64,000 nt of DNA from an uncultured Candidatus Rokubacteria bacterium. GTDB taxonomy: Bacteria; Methylomirabilota; Methylomirabilia; Rokubacteriales; DASRDR01. Location: positions 864,001-928,000 of the forward strand of contig CAWDVE010000010.1 of the NCBI GenBank assembly GCA_963805625.1. Reading direction: 5' to 3'. A model generated the notes under the pieces. The model saw nothing but the letters and a program-made list of their open reading frames with translations. It was not told the origin of the DNA and ran no database searches. Shown here piece after piece: positions 25,953 to 34,080 of the stretch (position 1 is the stretch's first letter; each line of letters begins with the position of its first letter). A program made the position numbers and the translations under genes.

Positions 25953-26717
25953 GTGCGTCCGAACAGTCTCAAGGCCAAGCTGCGGGCCGGCCAGCGTGTG
26001 GTCGGCGCCCTCATCACGATCAACAGCCCCGAGCTGGTCGAGACGTTCGGCCACCTCGGCTACGACTTCGTGTTCATCGACGGCCAGCACGGCGGCCTCG
26101 GCGTCGAGACCGCCCGAGAGCTGATCCGCGCGGCCGAGCTGACCGGGATGACACCGCTGGTACGCGTGCGGAAGAACGACGCGGCGGAGATTCTCGAGTA
26201 CCTCGACCAAGGGGCGGGCGGGGTGATCGTCCCCGACGTGACGAGCCGGGCCGAGGTGGAGGCCGCCGCAAAGGCGACGCGCTATCCGACGCGGGGAACC
26301 CGGGGCGCCATGGCCATGTCCCGCGCGGCGTTCTACGGAGTACCGCAAGCGGGCGCCGCATACTACCGGCAGGCGGACGAGGAGATCCTCTGCTGCGCCA
26401 TCTTCGAGAACCACGCGGTGCTCGGGGAGCTCGACGCCGCCGTCCGGGTCCCGGACCTCGACGTGGTCGTGATCGGCCCCGGTGATCTGTCCATGTCCAT
26501 GGGCATCCCGAACGGCTGGAAGGATCCGCGCGTGCAAACCGAGGTAACGCGGATCCACGCGGCGGCCCGCGCGGCGGGCAAGCCCGCCATGATCGTGGCC
26601 CTGGACCACGACGACGGCCGGCGCCTCCTCGCCGAGGGCTACCAGGCGCTCCTGGTCGTCAGCGGACCGCTCCTCGTGAACGCGGCCCGGAGCTTCCTCC
26701 AGGTTCTTCGCTCCTAG
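25953..26717 (+). CDS. HpcH/HpaI class II aldolase
   Basis: DGQHG, VRV, RYPTRGTRG and IGPGDLS motifs. Confidence 0.9.
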   Translation: MRPNSLKAKLRAGQRVVGALITINSPELVETFGHLGYDFVFIDGQHGGLGVETARELIRAAELTGMTPLVRVRKNDAAEILEYLDQGAGGVIVPDVTSRAEVEAAAKATRYPTRGTRGAMAMSRAAFYGVPQAGAAYYRQADEEILCCAIFENHAVLGELDAAVRVPDLDVVVIGPGDLSMSMGIPNGWKDPRVQTEVTRIHAAARAAGKPAMIVALDHDDGRRLLAEGYQALLVVSGPLLVNAARSFLQVLRS

Positions 26718-26733
26718 GACGAGGAGACCGGTC

Positions 26734-27753
26734 ATGCGCGCCGCGACCTGGCACGGAGAGAGCCGATTCACGCTCGATGACCTGCCCGAGCCCACCCCCG
26801 GCCCTGGACAGGTGCTGATCGCCGTCGACACGGCGGGCATTTGCGGGAGCGACATCCACGCCACGCAGGGGCTCTTCCCTCTGACGCCGCCCCGGGTGAT
26901 GGGGCACGAGTACAGCGGGACCGTGCTGGCGGTGGGTCGTGGCGTGAGCCGAAACCTCGTGGGGCGGGCGGTTGCCTGCGAGCCGAACTACGGCTGCGGC
27001 GCTTGCAATGATTGCCGCGCGAGCCGCATCAGCCAGTGCCAGCAGGCCGTGCGGGTGGGCGGCTTCGCCGAGCGCGTCGTGCTCCCCCGGTACTGCGTGC
27101 ATCCCCTCCCCAAGGGGCTCGATTCCAGCACGGCGGCCCTCGCCGAGCCGGCGGCCTGCTGCCTCGAGGGGCTCGAGATGGCCCGGATGCGCCGAGGCGC
27201 GATCGTGGTCGTGATCGGGGGCGGCATCATGGGCCTCCTGACGCTCGCGCTCGCGAAAGCGCGCGGCGCGGGGACGGCGATCCTGTCGGATCCGGTCGCC
27301 AGCCGTCGCTCGGCTGCCGGGCGCCTCGGTGCCGATCTCACGGTGGACCCTACCGCCGAGGATCTTGCCCGAGTGGTGGACCGCGCGACCGGCGGCCGCG
27401 GGGTCGACCTCGCCTGCGAAGCGGTCGGGAAGCCCGAGCTCCTGGCCGCGGCGGCGCGACTCGTGCGCCCGCGCGGCGTCGTGCAGCTTGTCGGCGTCTG
27501 CCCGAAGGGAAGCACCCTTCCCGTCGACCTTTTCGATTTTCACTTCCGCGAGCTGACCCTCACCGGCGCCTATGGTCGCGGGACAGCCTTTCGCCGCGTA
27601 CTACCGCTCCTGACCAGGATCGGCGCCGCGAGTCTCGTGACCGACCGGTATCCCCTCGAGCGCATCACCGAGGCGTTCGCCCACGCGGCCGCCGGACGGG
27701 GCCTCAAGACGGCCATCACCCCCGGCAGTGCCAACCCAGGGAGCCACGCTTGA
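26734..27753 (+). CDS. Zn-dependent dehydrogenase (sorbitol/threonine DH-like MDR)
   Basis: GICGSD, GHE, CGACNDC..C, EP and GGGIMG motifs. Confidence 0.9.
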   Translation: MRAATWHGESRFTLDDLPEPTPGPGQVLIAVDTAGICGSDIHATQGLFPLTPPRVMGHEYSGTVLAVGRGVSRNLVGRAVACEPNYGCGACNDCRASRISQCQQAVRVGGFAERVVLPRYCVHPLPKGLDSSTAALAEPAACCLEGLEMARMRRGAIVVVIGGGIMGLLTLALAKARGAGTAILSDPVASRRSAAGRLGADLTVDPTAEDLARVVDRATGGRGVDLACEAVGKPELLAAAARLVRPRGVVQLVGVCPKGSTLPVDLFDFHFRELTLTGAYGRGTAFRRVLPLLTRIGAASLVTDRYPLERITEAFAHAAAGRGLKTAITPGSANPGSHA

Positions 27754-27758
27754 CCAGC
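27693..27758 (+). repeat. 66-bp imperfect direct repeat, copy 1
   Basis: Aligns ungapped with 30996-31061, 53/66 identical by manual count. Confidence 0.9.
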
Positions 27759-27839
27759 CGCACCCTCCGAGCTCCCCGTCGTCGGGTCGCGCCGATCCCG
27801 CCGGCACCAGGATTTGTGCCGCGCGGCGCAGTGGGTACA

Positions 27840-27895
27840 CGGAGCCGGCGCTTCTCGATCTCCAGATCGTAGCGGGCCCTTAGGTTCAGCCAGAG
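27840..27895 (-). pseudogene. C-terminal remnant of a HigA-type antitoxin
   Basis: Translates as LWLNLRARYDLEIEKRRL, matching the HigA WLNLQxxYDL motif; no HTH upstream. Confidence 0.6.
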
Positions 27896-28178
27896 ACACC
27901 GCCAGTTCGGTCACGCCAGCAGGAGGCCGGAGGACCGCCCTTCGAGCATCGCCACGCCGGCGTCCCCTTCGAGGGCGCTTCTCCACCCAAGCGAGGTCGA
28001 GGCCATTCGGAGGGCCCTTATGTCGACTCGCTCACGACGTTGCGGCCTCGAGGTACCCGAGGTGACAAGCCCGTTCCCGGCCGTTCCACGCTCCCCAACG
28101 GGGGCCTCGGATGCCGATCGTGTCTCGTCAACGTCGAGTGCTTCGAAAGATTCCCGGGCTGAAAGACGACGACACCTC

Positions 28179-30827
28179 TCAGCGCAGGGTGAAGGCCTCC
28201 AGCGTGGCGGAAAGCGTCCGCGCCCGTCCAACGCTGGCAACCACGCGGCCTGTGCCCGCGGCCTCCACGGCGGAACCGGCCGGGGCTCCCTTGACCCCGA
28301 TGAGCGCGTGGGACATCCAGAGGCTGCCACGGAGGTCCTGCTGGCCACCCACCGATCTGAGCGCGGCCACACCCTCCGCCGTCAGCCGACCGCCGCCGTC
28401 AGTCTTGACCCCGGCGATCACGATGATTCCCGCCGGTAGGGCGTTGATGCGCTCAGCCATGCGACGCGACTCCGCTTCACTGCGGAACGTGTCGAAGTTT
28501 TCTGACCACAGCACGTGGCCATCTCCGCCGTCGAGGGCCACGACGTTGTACCCTCGCCGGGGAAGGGCTACCGCCTCGTGCCCGTTGACATGGGCCGAGA
28601 CCAGGCCTCCGCGGCCTTCCTGGTCGCGGCCCGCGCTGACGATCTCGATGTCCACGGGCGACCCCACGCCTGTCGTTCCGATACGGTAAGCCGCGGCCGA
28701 ACCGGCCACGTCCGGCCTCACCTGGTAGCGATGGAGGAAGCGCAGCTCGTTCCGGTCCGCCGCCCGGAAGGGAGGCGACAGAGCGAGGGTACCCGCCCCG
28801 GCGGCGTGGATCCGGTGAAGCGGGTGACCATTGAGGCTGACCTCGACAGACTGCGTCACGTCAGGATCGTCGCCATCGAAATGGAGCACGAACTCGGCCG
28901 TCGCGTGCGCGCGGACGAAGCTGGAGGAGAAGTGGCGGCGAAGGTCGATGCCCGTCTCCGGTGTAACCGTGAGCTCGTAGATGTCGTCCGGACCGAGCTG
29001 GCCGACGAGGCGAAAGCCGGGGAGCCGCTCCTCTCGAAGGCGCTCGGCCAGGTGAGTCGGGTCCGGATGAACCACGATGTAGCGCAACGGGACGATCTGT
29101 CGGACGGCGTGCGCGAATCCGGCCGGATCGAAGATCGGCCGCGTCGCGCCAACGATCTCTTTGGCCGTCGCGAGGGGGAAGCCGCCTCCGCCGTTCACCA
29201 GCAGTTTCCAATCCGTGTTGGCGGCCCAAAACATGGCCCAGTCGTCGACAGCCCCCTCGGCCATTGGCAGCTCGAGCACGGCGAAGTCGCCTGGCTGCGT
29301 GCCCAGCCAGGGATAGACCGGTGGGACGGGAGGAAGGTGGGTCCATGGGAGCGGAAAGACGTTCAGCTCCACCACCATGGCGGCGAGAAGGGCACCGAGC
29401 ACCACACCTCGCCTGAGGGAGAAGCGATCAGCAAGGGCACTCGCGCCGAACGCCACCAGGAGCCCGAGGGGCAGGGCGAACGCGAGACTCCAGCGGCCTG
29501 GCGCCCGAAAGGCCGACGCGCCGGGGATATGGAAGTACACCCAGCGGAAGGGCGCCGTCCCCCAGGGGTGCTCGGCGATCTTGATCGTGGGGGCGAGCGT
29601 GAGGAGGTAGGCGAGCACGGCCAGGAAGAGGGCGACCAGCACCCACTCGCGGGCGATCAGGGGCCCTCCCCGTCGCTGGCGGCCCTCGAGGGCGATGGCC
29701 GCCAGGGCGAGCGCCGGCAGAATGTTCACCGGCAGCGTGAGATCGTGGATGCCGAGGCGGGCCGCGCTCGCCGGCAGGAGGAGGCTCGCAGCGGCGACGA
29801 CGGTCACCACGATCACGCAGAGGCCAGCGCTCGCGGCAAGGATGCGCTGTGTCCGGCCGATCCATCGGGGCGACTCCGCGGCGGATGCGGCGGCGAGCGT
29901 TCCCAGCGCGACGACGACCAGGCCGAGAGCGACGAAGCCGGGAAACAGGCCGCCCTCGGAGCGGTTGAGGTACAGCAGCCGCTTGCCGTAGGCGGTGTTG
30001 AAGACACCGGGGTCGAAGAGTGACAGGAGATCCATGCCGTACCACTCGGCCTCACCGACGTCGCGCTTGAGGCCGAGTTCGCGATGCTGATCGGAGTACG
30101 GCCCCAGGAAGGGGGCGAGGGCGACGATCAGCAGGGCGAGGGCGAGCGCGCTGCGGCGTGCGAGGCGGAGAGTCAATGCCGCGGGCCGCAGGAGGAGGAA
30201 TGCCGCGACGAAACCCAGAAGAACAAATGCCAGCCCGAAGATCTGGTAGAGTCCCGAGAGCGTCTGGGCCCACAGCGCGGCGACGAGCAGGGCCAGGTCG
30301 CGCCAGCGAGCGCCCTGGAGAACGCGGTGGAGGGTCCACAGGATGAGAGGCGGCAAGGCCGCCATCTGGTAGGTGAACTGGCCGAGGTGGTCCATGCGAT
30401 TCGTGAAGAAGGCATAGACCATGCCGGCGAGGAGGCTCGGCAGCACGCGGCGCGTGAGGGAGTAGGCGAGTAGATATGTGAAGGCGCCGCTCGCCGCCAG
30501 GGCGGCGACGACGAACAGGTTGACTACGAACAGGGGGGTGGCGCCCAGCGCAATCAAGGGAGCCGCCAGGAGACCGGCGAAGAACTCCGGCTGCTGGTAC
30601 GCGACAGTGTGCGAATAGGGGTAGTAGAAAGGGAGATCATGGATGCCCAGAGGATCGTGCAGGATCTGGTGGGCGTTCCAGGCGACGATGCTCGTCTCCA
30701 TCATGTAGTCGCCGCCCTTGCCGCGCAGGATGGTCGTCGACAGCTGGAACACGAGGGGATAGGTATATATGGCGGCGACGGTCAGGTAGAAGAACACGAC
30801 CAGTGCGCCGTGCCGTAGCCGCGTCAC
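28179..30827 (-). CDS. Multi-pass membrane GT-C/YfhO-like glycosyltransferase with a C-terminal ILEI/PANDER-like domain
   Basis: Many TM segments; WNAH..PFYYPY, FRAPGRW and LVNG motifs; C-terminal RGYNVVALD..FDT..ALIGVKG; GTG start at 30827. Confidence 0.75.
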   Translation of the reverse strand: MTRLRHGALVVFFYLTVAAIYTYPLVFQLSTTILRGKGGDYMMETSIVAWNAHQILHDPLGIHDLPFYYPYSHTVAYQQPEFFAGLLAAPLIALGATPLFVVNLFVVAALAASGAFTYLLAYSLTRRVLPSLLAGMVYAFFTNRMDHLGQFTYQMAALPPLILWTLHRVLQGARWRDLALLVAALWAQTLSGLYQIFGLAFVLLGFVAAFLLLRPAALTLRLARRSALALALLIVALAPFLGPYSDQHRELGLKRDVGEAEWYGMDLLSLFDPGVFNTAYGKRLLYLNRSEGGLFPGFVALGLVVVALGTLAAASAAESPRWIGRTQRILAASAGLCVIVVTVVAAASLLLPASAARLGIHDLTLPVNILPALALAAIALEGRQRRGGPLIAREWVLVALFLAVLAYLLTLAPTIKIAEHPWGTAPFRWVYFHIPGASAFRAPGRWSLAFALPLGLLVAFGASALADRFSLRRGVVLGALLAAMVVELNVFPLPWTHLPPVPPVYPWLGTQPGDFAVLELPMAEGAVDDWAMFWAANTDWKLLVNGGGGFPLATAKEIVGATRPIFDPAGFAHAVRQIVPLRYIVVHPDPTHLAERLREERLPGFRLVGQLGPDDIYELTVTPETGIDLRRHFSSSFVRAHATAEFVLHFDGDDPDVTQSVEVSLNGHPLHRIHAAGAGTLALSPPFRAADRNELRFLHRYQVRPDVAGSAAAYRIGTTGVGSPVDIEIVSAGRDQEGRGGLVSAHVNGHEAVALPRRGYNVVALDGGDGHVLWSENFDTFRSEAESRRMAERINALPAGIIVIAGVKTDGGGRLTAEGVAALRSVGGQQDLRGSLWMSHALIGVKGAPAGSAVEAAGTGRVVASVGRARTLSATLEAFTLR

Positions 30828-30995
30828 CCCCGTGCCTTCCTCCGGTGTGCCTTCGCTTCGCGCGTGGGGCCCATGGTAGCACCCACGCCAACCGCCGATC
30901 GCGCCCCCTTTGGGGGACGGGGGAAACGGCCGAGCAGTGGCATTCTGTCGACCACCCTCGTACACTTTTCCCATGCGACTCCATCCGCGCGAGGT

Positions 30996-31061
30996 CGGAC
31001 GGGGTCGCAAGACGGCCATTACACCCGGCACCCCATCCCCGAGGAGCCACGCATGACCAGC
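30996..31061 (+). repeat. 66-bp imperfect direct repeat, copy 2 (duplicated dehydrogenase 3' end with the cocE RBS and start)
   Basis: Encodes GRGRKTAITPGTPSPRSHA* versus GRGLKTAITPGSANPGSHA* in copy 1. Confidence 0.9.
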
Positions 31062-32774
31062 GTGAATTCGGAGTTCACCGTCCGCCGTGATGTTCCCCAG
31101 ACGATGCGCGACGGGACGGTGCTCCGCGCCGACGTCTACCTGCCCAAGGGGATCGGACCCTTCCCGGCCCTCCTCGAGCGGACGCCCTACAGCAAGGACA
31201 ACTCCCCCGAGTGCCAGGTTGGCTCGCCTCCCTTCTTCGCGTCTCAGGGCTACGCGGTCGTGATCCAGGACGTCAGGGGCCGCTTCGCCTCCGAGGGCCG
31301 CTTCATCCCCTTCCACGACGACGGCTGGGGCACGACCCGCGACGGCTACGACACGGTCGAGTGGATCGCCGCTCAGCCGTGGTGCGACGGGAACGTCGGC
31401 ACCATCGGCGGCTCGTACGCGGGGGCGACCCAGTACCGGCTCGCGCCGACGCGCCCGCCCCACCTCCGCGCGATGTACGTGCGCGAATCCTCCGCGGACT
31501 ACTGGGCAGAGTGGGTCTACCATGGCGGCGCCTTCGAGCTCGGCTTCATGGTCGAGTGGACGTTCAAGTGGACCTACAACAACCTCGCGCGGCTGGCGCG
31601 GAGCCCCGAGGAGCACGCGCGGCGGAAGGGCATCCTCGAGAAGGCACTGCAGGAGCTCCCGAGCTGGCACCGTGAGCTGCCGCTTCATCCGAATCCGCTC
31701 GCCGAGGGCCTGGACGACTGGTACAACGAGTTCCTGGCTCATCCGGACGACGGCCCCTACTGGTGGCGCTGGAACATCGGCCACCGTCACGGCGACATCG
31801 AGACCCCAATCGTCCACATGGGGGGCTGGTTCGACATCTTCCTCGCGGGAACGATCAAGAACTTCGTCGGCACGCGTGCCAAGGCGCGTACCCAGGCAGC
31901 GCGCGATGCGCAGCGCCTCGTCGTCGGGCCATGGATCCACGGGCCGTGGAACATGGCCAAGACCGTCCAGGGCGAGATCGACTTCGGGCCCGAGGCGATC
32001 CGGGATTACAACGCCATCCGCGTGCCCTGGTTCGACCACTGGCTCCGCGGCGCCAAGAACTCCGTCCCCGACGAGCCGCGCGTCCAGCTCTTCGTGATGG
32101 GCGAGAATCGCTGGCGCACCGCCGACATCTACCCGTGGCCCGGCGCGCGCGAGACGCCGTGGTACCTCCGTGACGGCGGGCGCCTCGGGCCGGAGGCGCC
32201 GGCCGGGGCAGAGCAGGCCGACGGCTACCGGTACGATCCGGACGACCCGGTCCCGACCCTGGGCGGGGCGACGCTCAACATCCCGGGCGGCGCCTACGAC
32301 CAGCGGCCCATCGAGGGGCGCTGTCTCACGTACACGAGCGTGCCCCTCGAGCGAGACCTCACCGTGATCGGCGACATCCGCTGCGTGCTCCACGCCATGT
32401 CCACGGCGCCGGACACCGACTTCGTCGTCCGGCTCACCGACGTCCATCCCGACGGGACCTCCCGCCTTCTCTGCGACGGAATCCTCCGCGCTCGCTATCG
32501 CGACTCGGGGAGCCACCCGACCCCGCTCACGCCCGGCCGGGTCTACGAAGTGACGGTGGACCTCTGGGCGACGGCCAACACGTTCCGGAAGGGTCACCGC
32601 ATCCGCGTCGCGGTGACGTCGTCGAGCTTCCCCCGGTTCGACCGCAATCTCAACACCGGCGGCCCGACCGGCGCCGAGGCGCGGGGCCAGGTCGCGCTGA
32701 ACACAGTCTTCCACGACGCCGCCCGCCCGTCCCGGATCCTCCTGCCGGTGGTGGAGCACGGCCCGGAGCACTAG
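31053..32774 (+). CDS. CocE/NonD family hydrolase (peptidase S15)
   Basis: MRDGTVL.AD, RTPY, QDVRGRFASEG, GGSYAG, GWFD and GPWIH motifs; GAGGAG RBS. Confidence 0.93.
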   Translation: MTSVNSEFTVRRDVPQTMRDGTVLRADVYLPKGIGPFPALLERTPYSKDNSPECQVGSPPFFASQGYAVVIQDVRGRFASEGRFIPFHDDGWGTTRDGYDTVEWIAAQPWCDGNVGTIGGSYAGATQYRLAPTRPPHLRAMYVRESSADYWAEWVYHGGAFELGFMVEWTFKWTYNNLARLARSPEEHARRKGILEKALQELPSWHRELPLHPNPLAEGLDDWYNEFLAHPDDGPYWWRWNIGHRHGDIETPIVHMGGWFDIFLAGTIKNFVGTRAKARTQAARDAQRLVVGPWIHGPWNMAKTVQGEIDFGPEAIRDYNAIRVPWFDHWLRGAKNSVPDEPRVQLFVMGENRWRTADIYPWPGARETPWYLRDGGRLGPEAPAGAEQADGYRYDPDDPVPTLGGATLNIPGGAYDQRPIEGRCLTYTSVPLERDLTVIGDIRCVLHAMSTAPDTDFVVRLTDVHPDGTSRLLCDGILRARYRDSGSHPTPLTPGRVYEVTVDLWATANTFRKGHRIRVAVTSSSFPRFDRNLNTGGPTGAEARGQVALNTVFHDAARPSRILLPVVEHGPEH

Positions 32775-32812
32775 TCTCGCCTCGGTGCCGCGTCGTGCTT
32801 GACGCCTGGTGG

Positions 32813-33016
32813 GCCTTCACGTTAATGAACGAGATCGCGGGGCCGCAGCTCGCGCAGACCGTGCAGCTCGGCCTCGAATATGATCCGCACCCGCCCTTCG
32901 ATGCGGGTTCGCCCGCGCGCGCGCCGAAAGCGATCAAATCATCGGCGGACGAGCGTTACGCGCATCGCATCGCGGCGTTCGAGGAAGTGCTGGGCCGGGT
33001 CGCGCCTAGTCTCTAG
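32813..33016 (+). pseudogene. C-terminal remnant of a DJ-1/PfpI (InhA-like) gene
   Basis: AQTVQLGLEYDPHPPFDAGSP motif present; catalytic N-terminal region absent. Confidence 0.75.
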
Positions 33017-33105
33017 CACCGAGGTGATTCAGACTGCCCGCTTGCCCCGGCCTCCCCTTCAGCCGTCACACAGCGACGCCCGTGACGCTGGTATGATCTA
33101 GCGTC

Positions 33106-34080
33106 ATGAAGGCCATGGTCGCGACACGTTGGGGCGAGCCGTCGGACCTCGAGTATGTGGACCTGCCCGACCCCGAGCCGGGGCCTGGCCAGGTGATCGT
33201 CGACACTCGGGCGGCGGGATGCAACTTTCCCGACATCCTCATGATCCAGGGGAAATACCAGGTCAAGCCGCCCCTCCCGTTCAGCCCGGGCCATGAGATC
33301 GCCGGCGTGGTCCGGGCGGTCGGCTCCGGCGTGACGCGCGTCCACCCCGGGCAGCGTGTCATCGGCAACCTCGAGTGGGGCGGTTACGCGGAGCGGGCGG
33401 TCACCGCCGCGGAGCGCGTGCACCCGATTCCCGACGGGATGCCGTTCGACCAGGCCGCGGCCTTCTTCGTCGTCTACCAGACGGGCTATGCGGCCCTGGT
33501 CCGGCGCGCCGCTCTCCAGCCGGGCGAGTGGCTCCTCGTGCACGGCGCGGCGGGGGGCGTGGGGCTCGCGGCGGTCCAGCTCGGGAAGGCGCTCGGCGCC
33601 CGCGTCATCGCCACCGCCGGCACGCCGGACAAGCTTGAGGTCGCCCGGCAGTCGGGAGCGGACGTCCTCATCGACTACCGCACGGAGGACTGGGTCGAGC
33701 GTGTGAAGAGCGTCACGGGCGGTGAGGGGGCGGACGTGATCTACGATCCCGTCGGGGGCGACGTCTTCGACGGCTCGACCAAGTGCATCGCCTTCGAGGG
33801 GCGGCTCCTCACGATCGGCTTCGCCGGGGGGCGCATCCCGACCCTCGCCATCAACCGGGTCCTCCTCAAGAACTTCAGCGTGGTGGGGGTCCACTGGGGC
33901 TACTACCAGCGGCGCGGCTCGCCCCTCGTCCAGGAGTGGACAGACGCCCTCCTGAAGCTCTACGGCGCGGGCCGGATCCGGCCCGTGATCTACCGCGCCT
34001 ATCCCCTCCGCGAGGCCGCCGCCGCGCTCCGCGCGCTGGCGTCTCGCGAGTCCTACGGAAAGGTGGTCCTGGTCCCATGA
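33106..34080 (+). CDS. NADPH:quinone oxidoreductase (zeta-crystallin-like MDR)
   Basis: NFPD..GKYQ, HGAAGGVG, YDPVGG and GKVVL motifs. Confidence 0.92.
   Translation: MKAMVATRWGEPSDLEYVDLPDPEPGPGQVIVDTRAAGCNFPDILMIQGKYQVKPPLPFSPGHEIAGVVRAVGSGVTRVHPGQRVIGNLEWGGYAERAVTAAERVHPIPDGMPFDQAAAFFVVYQTGYAALVRRAALQPGEWLLVHGAAGGVGLAAVQLGKALGARVIATAGTPDKLEVARQSGADVLIDYRTEDWVERVKSVTGGEGADVIYDPVGGDVFDGSTKCIAFEGRLLTIGFAGGRIPTLAINRVLLKNFSVVGVHWGYYQRRGSPLVQEWTDALLKLYGAGRIRPVIYRAYPLREAAAALRALASRESYGKVVLVP

Follow-up and report, generated by a model that had tools for sequence, protein, structure and literature searches.

The locus described here raises the question how a gene can enter the junction between two overlapping operon genes, where there is no free space, and leave both of them intact. 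It is part of a 64,000-nt stretch of DNA of an uncultured Candidatus Rokubacteria bacterium (contig CAWDVE010000010.1 of assembly GCA_963805625.1), which is called the window throughout; coordinates are positions in the window, and offsets of the type -n/+n are counted from the cocE start. The genome that holds the window, designated G000, is a 7.27-Mb metagenome bin with 6% contamination, and its nearest relatives are Candidatus Rokubacteria/Methylomirabilota metagenome-assembled genomes. The two genes encode a Zn-dependent dehydrogenase (26734-27753, plus strand; PF08240/PF00107) and a hydrolase of the CocE/NonD family (cocE, 31053-32774, plus strand; PF02129/PF08530, TIGR00976). They are separated by an islet that is flanked by a direct repeat, and an earlier note, made from the DNA alone, had proposed that a cassette was inserted at their junction with an att-like duplication. 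The results indicate that the islet is most likely a worn example of known gene-capture processes, and not a new integrase system.

A comparison with relatives confirmed that the islet is an insertion, and an old one, into the overlap of the two operon genes. Fourteen congeneric genomes were compared, of which 12 contain this cocE and the remaining two are 68-71% complete. In eight of the 12, including the nearest relative (G013), the junction is empty and the dehydrogenase gene is joined directly to cocE by an ATGA stop/start overlap, as proposed in the earlier note, which had assumed that the two genes were once translationally coupled. The other four junctions are filled with different cargo: three contain an uncharacterized lipoprotein-like gene (L033, L032 and L031 in G001, G003 and G005, respectively), and one contains a 6-kb liv-type ABC operon (L034 in G002). 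In the metagenome data, the dehydrogenase end had an amino acid identity of at least 80% in 11 of the 80 loci listed, and of these seven were empty, two contained the start of the liv operon, and two had a short spacer. A tree of three concatenated genes, computed with FastTree from G000 and 25 further rows (some rows partial, no topology test), nested G000 among empty-site genomes with a support of 1.0. The lipoprotein and the liv inserts were found in two other clades of the same tree (1.0 and 0.999), and one empty locus was found inside the liv clade.

The assembly was also verified with contigs of public sequencing studies. The run X1 was the best holder of the islet and may be the source sample, and it was left out of the independent support. 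Contigs of X4 bridge both islet junctions without differences, contigs of X3 also bridge both junctions but show strain differences and carry a deletion of 586 bp in the cargo gene, and contigs of X9 bridge the right junction; no single listed contig spans the whole islet. A joint of repeat copy 1 to copy 2, i.e., the excised form, was not present among the contigs listed, which drop rare variants. Taken together, the empty sites, the tree and the bridging contigs agree with the proposal that the two genes were once translationally coupled, that a cassette was inserted at the junction, that both genes remained intact, and that the event is old and decayed. An assembly artefact or a chance repeat is thus a negligible explanation, as it could refer only to the contamination of the bin and the missing full-length contig, and is opposed by the repeat E value of 1.3e-11 and by the X3, X4 and X9 contigs across the left and/or right junction, some of them with strain-level differences.

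Within this one genus, the junction has been the site of three independent insertions. A decayed second copy of the dehydrogenase tail is present in each of the lipoprotein and liv inserts. The duplicated spans, the limits of which are blurred by decay, extend from about -97 to +31 in G000, from -93 to -24 in the lipoprotein clade, and from -34 to +13 in the liv clade. The lipoprotein-like gene is truncated in G005 and was lost in L158.

Next, the repeat was analyzed. Realignment reproduced the ungapped match of 27693-27758 (copy 1, plus strand) to 30996-31061 (copy 2, plus strand) with 53 of 66 identical nucleotides. A genome-wide blastn search found the 66-mer only twice in G000 (E 1.3e-11), while the next best match had an E value of 0.023 over 42 nt. 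Each copy comprises the last 19 codons of the dehydrogenase gene, a Shine-Dalgarno-like stretch and the first cocE codons. As noted before, copy 1 has TTGA at 27750-27753, where the dehydrogenase gene stops inside the repeat, and copy 2 has ATGA at 31053-31056, which is the cocE start. The earlier note was right that the islet is repeat-flanked, but 66 bp is only the best-kept core of the duplication. In comparison with the empty G013 junction, which served as the reference for both copies, decayed arms could be followed from copy 2 back to about -97 and from copy 1 on to about +31 of an old cocE. Shuffling gave p values of about 0.004 for the copy 2 arm to -97 and of 0.005 for the copy 1 arm from +10 to +31, for windows picked after inspection. 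The duplication therefore probably spans about 130 bp: the left copy (27653-27780, plus strand) consists of the working dehydrogenase tail and a decayed cocE start, and the right copy (30955-31083, plus strand) opens with CCCTC at -97 and consists of a displaced dehydrogenase tail followed by the working cocE ribosome-binding site and start.

The longest identical run between the two copies is 12 nt. When copy 2 is compared with G013 over the 57 nt that precede the cocE start, eight sites differ, of which seven are synonymous third positions (binomial p 0.003); two of these seven differences are common to other relatives. The single amino acid change is missing from X3, X5 and X9 contigs, and the purely synonymous divergence in these sister strains argues that selection last acted on the tail while it was the end of a working dehydrogenase gene. 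The right copy thus resembles a separate allele that once worked. In copy 1, the cocE remnant is, as judged by eye, nearer to the G013 allele than to the working cocE of G000. In addition, the first approximately 800 bp of cocE have twice the usual rate of changes private to G000 (40/800 versus 63/2635 elsewhere; Fisher p 0.0003, with windows chosen post hoc), which is the pattern that a donor tract would give. The proposed att-like duplication could not be upheld: in addition to the short identical run and the differences from G013 almost exclusively at third positions, the other inserts at the junction differ in cargo and limits. The best explanation is that the repeat is a scar of recombination, and not the target of a recombinase.

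The decisive feature was found at the right edge of the islet. The 54 bp directly to the left of copy 2 (30901-30954, plus strand) belong to a dispersed family and were recognized as the origin (oriIS) end of a rolling-circle element of the ISCR/IS91 type. Profile searches matched them with E values of 5e-16 and 1e-7, the former with a profile that was built partly from this very copy. The family profile comprises about 210 positions and was derived from five copies of G000 and two of relatives; it had 34 matches in G000 at E values up to 1, 30 of them below 0.05. An 81-bp query of the origin end was matched in nine of 60 relatives. Y2 transposases (PF04986) were detected in 11 of 21 genomes of the taxonomic family. 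At three of 23 Y2 loci (L281 and L270 in G003, and L279 in G001), the transposase gene is followed within a few hundred bases by a profile match on its own strand (E 9e-21, 4e-19 and 3e-10). The best match of the G003 transposase, a partial sequence, was the NF052416 model for ISCR clade Ia (E 1.5e-64), with a match that was below the cut-off. The location downstream of a Y2 transposase thus applies to the family of ends, not to the 30901-30954 copy itself.

The details of this end are also typical of the family. A subterminal C5-T3-G5 hairpin at 30904-30916 is common to other copies. Conservation ends at a GACTA-type tip, at which the cut would have occurred, and a CCCTC-like flank follows in most of the listed copies. 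At the islet, the origin end directly abuts a CCCTC with which the extended copy 2 begins. The dehydrogenase gene has CCCTC at the matching offset of -97 (27653), a motif that occurs once in 568 positions. No transposase and no terminus (terIS) end were found in the islet, and the three Y2 fragments elsewhere in G000 are not located beside an end of the 30901-30954 type. The right edge of the islet is thus the orphan end of an ISCR/IS91-type transposon and not a complete element. The terminal 18 nt of an origin end are also present as a scrap at 28011-28028 (plus strand, 17/18 matching), in the same orientation as the right end; only two matches with at most one mismatch exist genome-wide, and longer alignments were marginal (p 0.02-0.055). 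A possible third remnant, inverted, truncated and of low confidence, was seen at 28067-28104 (minus strand; E 0.083 in a profile search of the islet; 77% identity to the C19 copy over 43 nt, E 0.066). The earlier note had described the islet as integrase-less and had seen neither a recombinase nor a tRNA target, and indeed none was found, but mobile-element sequence is present in the form of the origin end and the scrap.

How the insertion came about can be reconstructed only tentatively in its details, and we regard it as somewhat probable that ISCR activity delivered the cargo and that homologous recombination with an intact allele gave the second copy of the junction. In a first step, a now-lost ISCR transposase would have joined the origin end and the dragged DNA, i.e., the membrane-protein gene of the islet and earlier scraps, to CCCTC in the dehydrogenase tail, either by insertion at CCCTC or by an over-run rolling-circle copy that ended there. 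In a second step, recombination with an intact dehydrogenase-cocE allele would have left a working dehydrogenase gene at the left and a working cocE at the right; the allele could have been met by a circle that a single crossover rescued, in line with the ISCR1 model, or in a homology-anchored transfer from a congener. In a third step, survivors would be restricted to cases in which both genes stay working. Because the ribosome-binding site of cocE sits within the dehydrogenase coding sequence, only outcomes that contain the junction twice would persist.

The order of cargo, origin end and displaced target copy fits the circle/recombination model of ISCR elements. IS91-family elements start at oriIS, often overrun the terminus, carry adjacent DNA and have a short target next to oriIS; they make no target duplication, and circles are formed (PMC13181058). 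ISCR1 circles have been modelled to re-enter by homologous recombination (PMC7707992), and duplicated flanks are present in ISCR1-linked integrons (PMC3575428). The islet resembles ISCR1 and the complex class 1 integrons in several respects: the origin end is found downstream of a Y2/HUH transposase in relatives, it has a subterminal hairpin and a fixed flank, the cargo is upstream of the origin, and there is a flanking duplication as in the model of circle formation plus homologous recombination (PMC7707992, PMC3575428, PMC13181058). In contrast to these integrons, the islet has kept only about 54 bp of the end and neither transposase nor terminus end. What is duplicated is an operon junction of the chromosome instead of the integron 3' conserved segment, and in place of a resistance gene the islet carries a membrane-protein gene that comes from the same genus. 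Ends that lack a transposase are also known from the miniature right-end derivatives of IS801, an IS91-family element, which exist in many copies in Pseudomonas syringae pv. phaseolicola. Such right-end fragments are able to move or to seed recombination, and most were judged to be products of rearrangement (PMC3189936). However, the IS801 fragments have lengths of 229-679 nt and were caught moving, whereas the islet end is shorter and has a mutated tip.

Several results weigh against the delivery by an ISCR element. The lipoprotein inserts of three genomes and the liv insert of one genome had no match to the origin end with any of three profiles, and the same was true for four other confirmed islets of G000. 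When the 40 kb upstream of 23 other origin ends were searched, a junction-type repeat was found at none of them; one other end is followed by a 209-bp gene fragment that is 81% like a gene 21 kb away. Transposase and terminus end are missing from the islet, as mentioned above, and the proposed order of the steps is conjectural. Also the allele argument has counter-indications. When the copy 2 core was compared with copy 1's own allele, the synonymous bias was only 3/4 (p 0.11), and six other displaced copies that were tested had no third-position bias (p 0.33-0.58). In addition, the arm from -97 to -58 is far more decayed than the core from -57 to 0, and a single event is thus insufficient unless alleles were exchanged later. 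Two alleles as a general rule were rejected, as they found no support in six other repeat pairs or in three tails of the lipoprotein clade (p 0.08-0.91).

A possible, if less probable, explanation is a generic insertion with long target duplication, in which break repair or homology-anchored illegitimate recombination duplicated at least 130 bp and an ISCR end entered the dead copy later and trimmed it. The same anatomy indeed exists in G000 without ISCR ends. A self-comparison of the genome gave 701 close direct-repeat pairs, of which 61 were two-copy and non-intragenic, many of them paralogues; six pairs were chosen for similar anatomy and tested against five relatives. Four pairs (about 240, 350, 51 and 35 bp) have an empty site, one is filled also in relatives, and one was unclear. 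As long target duplication thus occurs in G000 without ISCR, the origin end of the islet could be a later visitor. Three independent inserts with differing limits at this one junction, and a published class of such insertions with repeats from above 30 to about 420 bp, which was described for restriction-modification genes (PMC2853133), also speak for this explanation. However, it requires that the upstream part of the dead copy was lost, and no significant dehydrogenase-derived sequence was left in the left part of the islet (p 0.056). Furthermore, two co-oriented origin remnants bracket the cargo gene, and the six other pairs decay neutrally, in contrast to copy 2 with its synonymous bias.

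The four islets with empty sites were found at C10:1929041/1934320, C19:494146/496919, C19:190956/196755 and C19:634068/635211 (L199, L201, L205 and L203). They have sizes of 1-6 kb and are flanked by duplicated gene ends of 35-350 bp; no ISCR end or restriction genes were seen, and each has an empty site in at least one relative.

The length of the repeat had been taken in the earlier note as too long for a target duplication. There are two published counter-cases, i.e., IS1549/IS1634 with direct repeats of 8-514 bp (PMC2266710), so that duplications of 60-130 bp can come from transposition, and the insertions with long target duplication (Furuta, Abe and Kobayashi 2010, PMC2853133). The islet shares with the latter class an insert below 20 kb (here 3.2 kb), a unique repeat above 30 bp (here 66-130 bp, two copies), a single copy in empty relatives (eight of 12 congeners), a repeat that overlaps a gene end, and the absence of an integrase. 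It is unlike this class in that it has no restriction-modification genes and contains a mobile-element end, and its copies (80%) are far more diverged than most of the cases listed in PMC2853133 and look like two alleles. IS1634 itself was tried as the source and rejected: the islet ends do not match, and no IS1634 ends or transposase are present between the repeats. G000 has four IS1634-family transposase matches, and in contrast to the published elements these copies lack long repeats and are flanked by short sequences of the CTA/CTAG type. Three near-identical copies with such short flanks (C12:2906, C12:195719 and C17:478460) suggest recent activity. Insertion with long target duplication was reportedly first described by Nobusato et al. 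in 2000.

In its widest form, the preferred delivery by an ISCR element would mean that the Rokubacteria chromosome grows like complex class 1 integrons, i.e., that host-gene ISCR circles re-enter operon junctions by homologous recombination, duplicate 35-350 bp and cost no gene, and that the displaced tail is recycled as a leaderless mini-ORF that restores the coupling to cocE. This generalization is improbable.

A decayed integrative element with a tyrosine or serine integrase, the repeat being attL/attR with a replacement gene end, is quite unlikely. It would account for three separate insertions at the same junction, the duplicated stretches of which have about 10 bp in common. In addition, 24 tyrosine-recombinase matches were found in G000, and elements that replace a gene 3' end with a synonymous variant exist. 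However, no PF00589 match was found in the islet and no integrase was seen by ORF inspection in the four filled congeneric loci, the longest identical run between the copies is 12 nt, and cargo and duplication limits differ between the events; the recurrent pattern at an overlapping junction can be explained by survivor bias. Two candidate recombinases elsewhere in G000 were also rejected. An integrase at C10:2008448 has homologues in four of 20 relatives, and these short loci had no match to the origin profile; its neighbor is presumably DUF3987-like, although it had no Pfam match. A recombinase trio at C10:694.9-697.4 kb, which we take to be of the RIT type, has a similar short motif and no link to the islet.

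Very unlikely is also a Xer/dif-type module, in which two dif-like 28-mers that flank the cargo gene would be XerCD sites. The terminal motif reads 11-6-11 with one arm like XerD sites, which resembles dif, and G000 has two XerC/XerD-like genes. This interpretation was dropped when the same end was found downstream of ISCR-type transposases, where the 28-mer is the tip of a family of about 200 bp. In addition, a matching left arm is missing from the left 28-mer, and a search around the GC-skew switch of C10 found no site of this type. A target duplication of 130 bp would also not be expected from Xer recombination.

The importance of the locus lies in the route of gene entry into an operon junction without free space, at which only events that leave the junction twice survive. 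One such event is tied to an ISCR-type origin end, with an anatomy that is known from resistance integrons and is seen here among the housekeeping genes on the chromosome of a soil phylum without cultured members. G000 also has several long target duplications that do not involve restriction-modification genes. Both processes have already been published, and the gain is therefore a well-resolved example and a small comparative set, which serves the still unexplained mechanism of long duplication. No literature on this junction or on Rokubacteria ISCR ends was found in a search whose coverage excluded most subscription papers.

The islet has a GC content of 64-72%, similar to its flanks. Next to copy 1, the 3' remnant of a higA antitoxin gene is present (27782-27894, minus strand), in agreement with the earlier note. 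It has 80% nucleotide identity over 98-113 nt to the higA 3' ends of three relatives (G019, G004 and G018), and the G019 protein matches TIGR02607; no other higBA sequence was found in G000 with a relative's higBA as query. Next to the origin scrap, about 40 bp (28028-28066, minus strand) belong to a gene that we take to encode an ABC-transporter substrate-binding-type protein, a family name that was assigned without a domain scan. The nucleotide identity is 86-88% in five genomes of the order/family and about 82% to G000 paralogues.

The cargo gene (28179-30827, minus strand) encodes a multi-pass membrane protein of 882 amino acids with about 10 hydrophobic segments, as judged by hydropathy, and with DUF6311/YfhO look-alikes. 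The earlier note had called it an antisense GT-C/ILEI gene, and the ILEI part was verified by a C-terminal domain (PF15711), but GT-C was not confirmed by Pfam or NCBIfam. Outside of ILEI, the protein had no Pfam, NCBIfam or PDB sequence match, and it may act as a glycosyltransferase. In G002, an orthologue with 71% amino acid identity is present at a different locus, where it is flanked by an ABC cluster and a coxM-like gene. G008 has a remnant of the cargo gene at the same locus, and the G000 locus is devoid of it. The cargo gene may have been moved or re-acquired. In sister strains (X3, X9), the cargo gene has lost its 5' end through the 586-bp deletion (30328-30915), which extends to the origin hairpin, indicating that the cargo is decaying in some populations.

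At the displaced tail, a TAnnnT box lies 6 nt before an ATG at 30973, and a 27-codon frame leads from there through the tail into the ATGA overlap with cocE (30961-31056). In G000, an enrichment of these boxes was seen at a distance of 6-9 nt from ATG starts (98 found, about 28 expected, in 1764 crude ORFs). Two sister strains are one T short, which results in a spacing of 5 nt, and this spacing is not enriched. The frame is a possible candidate for a leaderless mini-ORF and is given as a lead only. An Rfam search of 26000-33500 had no match at E values up to 1, a sigma-70 promoter scan of 27600-31200 gave no site, and no RNA sequencing run among the matches listed holds the islet.

The dehydrogenase gene and cocE are both intact. 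Upstream of the dehydrogenase gene, which has 95% amino acid identity to G013, the same operon contains an HpcH/HpaI aldolase gene (25953-26717, plus strand; PF03328), which is syntenic in relatives. In G003 (L032), a methyltransferase-like gene is inserted one junction further upstream, between aldolase and dehydrogenase, and in L119 only its 3' remnant is left. Distant dehydrogenase homologues at L166:1300-1615 and in L125/L126 have short duplications of their own 3' ends. Downstream of cocE, a short remnant ORF was seen at 32795-33016. G013 has about 4 kb more DNA after cocE, indicating that G000 lost genes there.

About 30 orphan origin ends exist in G000, some of them in co-oriented pairs or runs 0.6-3 kb apart (C10:1733565/1736560, C10:2017198/2019671 and C19:28-38 kb), and 22 of 30 are located on the locally C-rich strand. 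Longer copies have a TTGACA-type, outward promoter-like stretch, which the copy in the window lacks. Low-GC stretches unlike the remaining genome (C10:1-130000 and parts of C25) are probably bin contamination or chimeric contig ends. A multi-kb segment that is bounded by origin ends is present twice with 99.9% identity (C10:1733-1737 kb and C12:179.6-183.2 kb), and it represents either a recent copy event of the ISCR type or a strain duplication in the bin.

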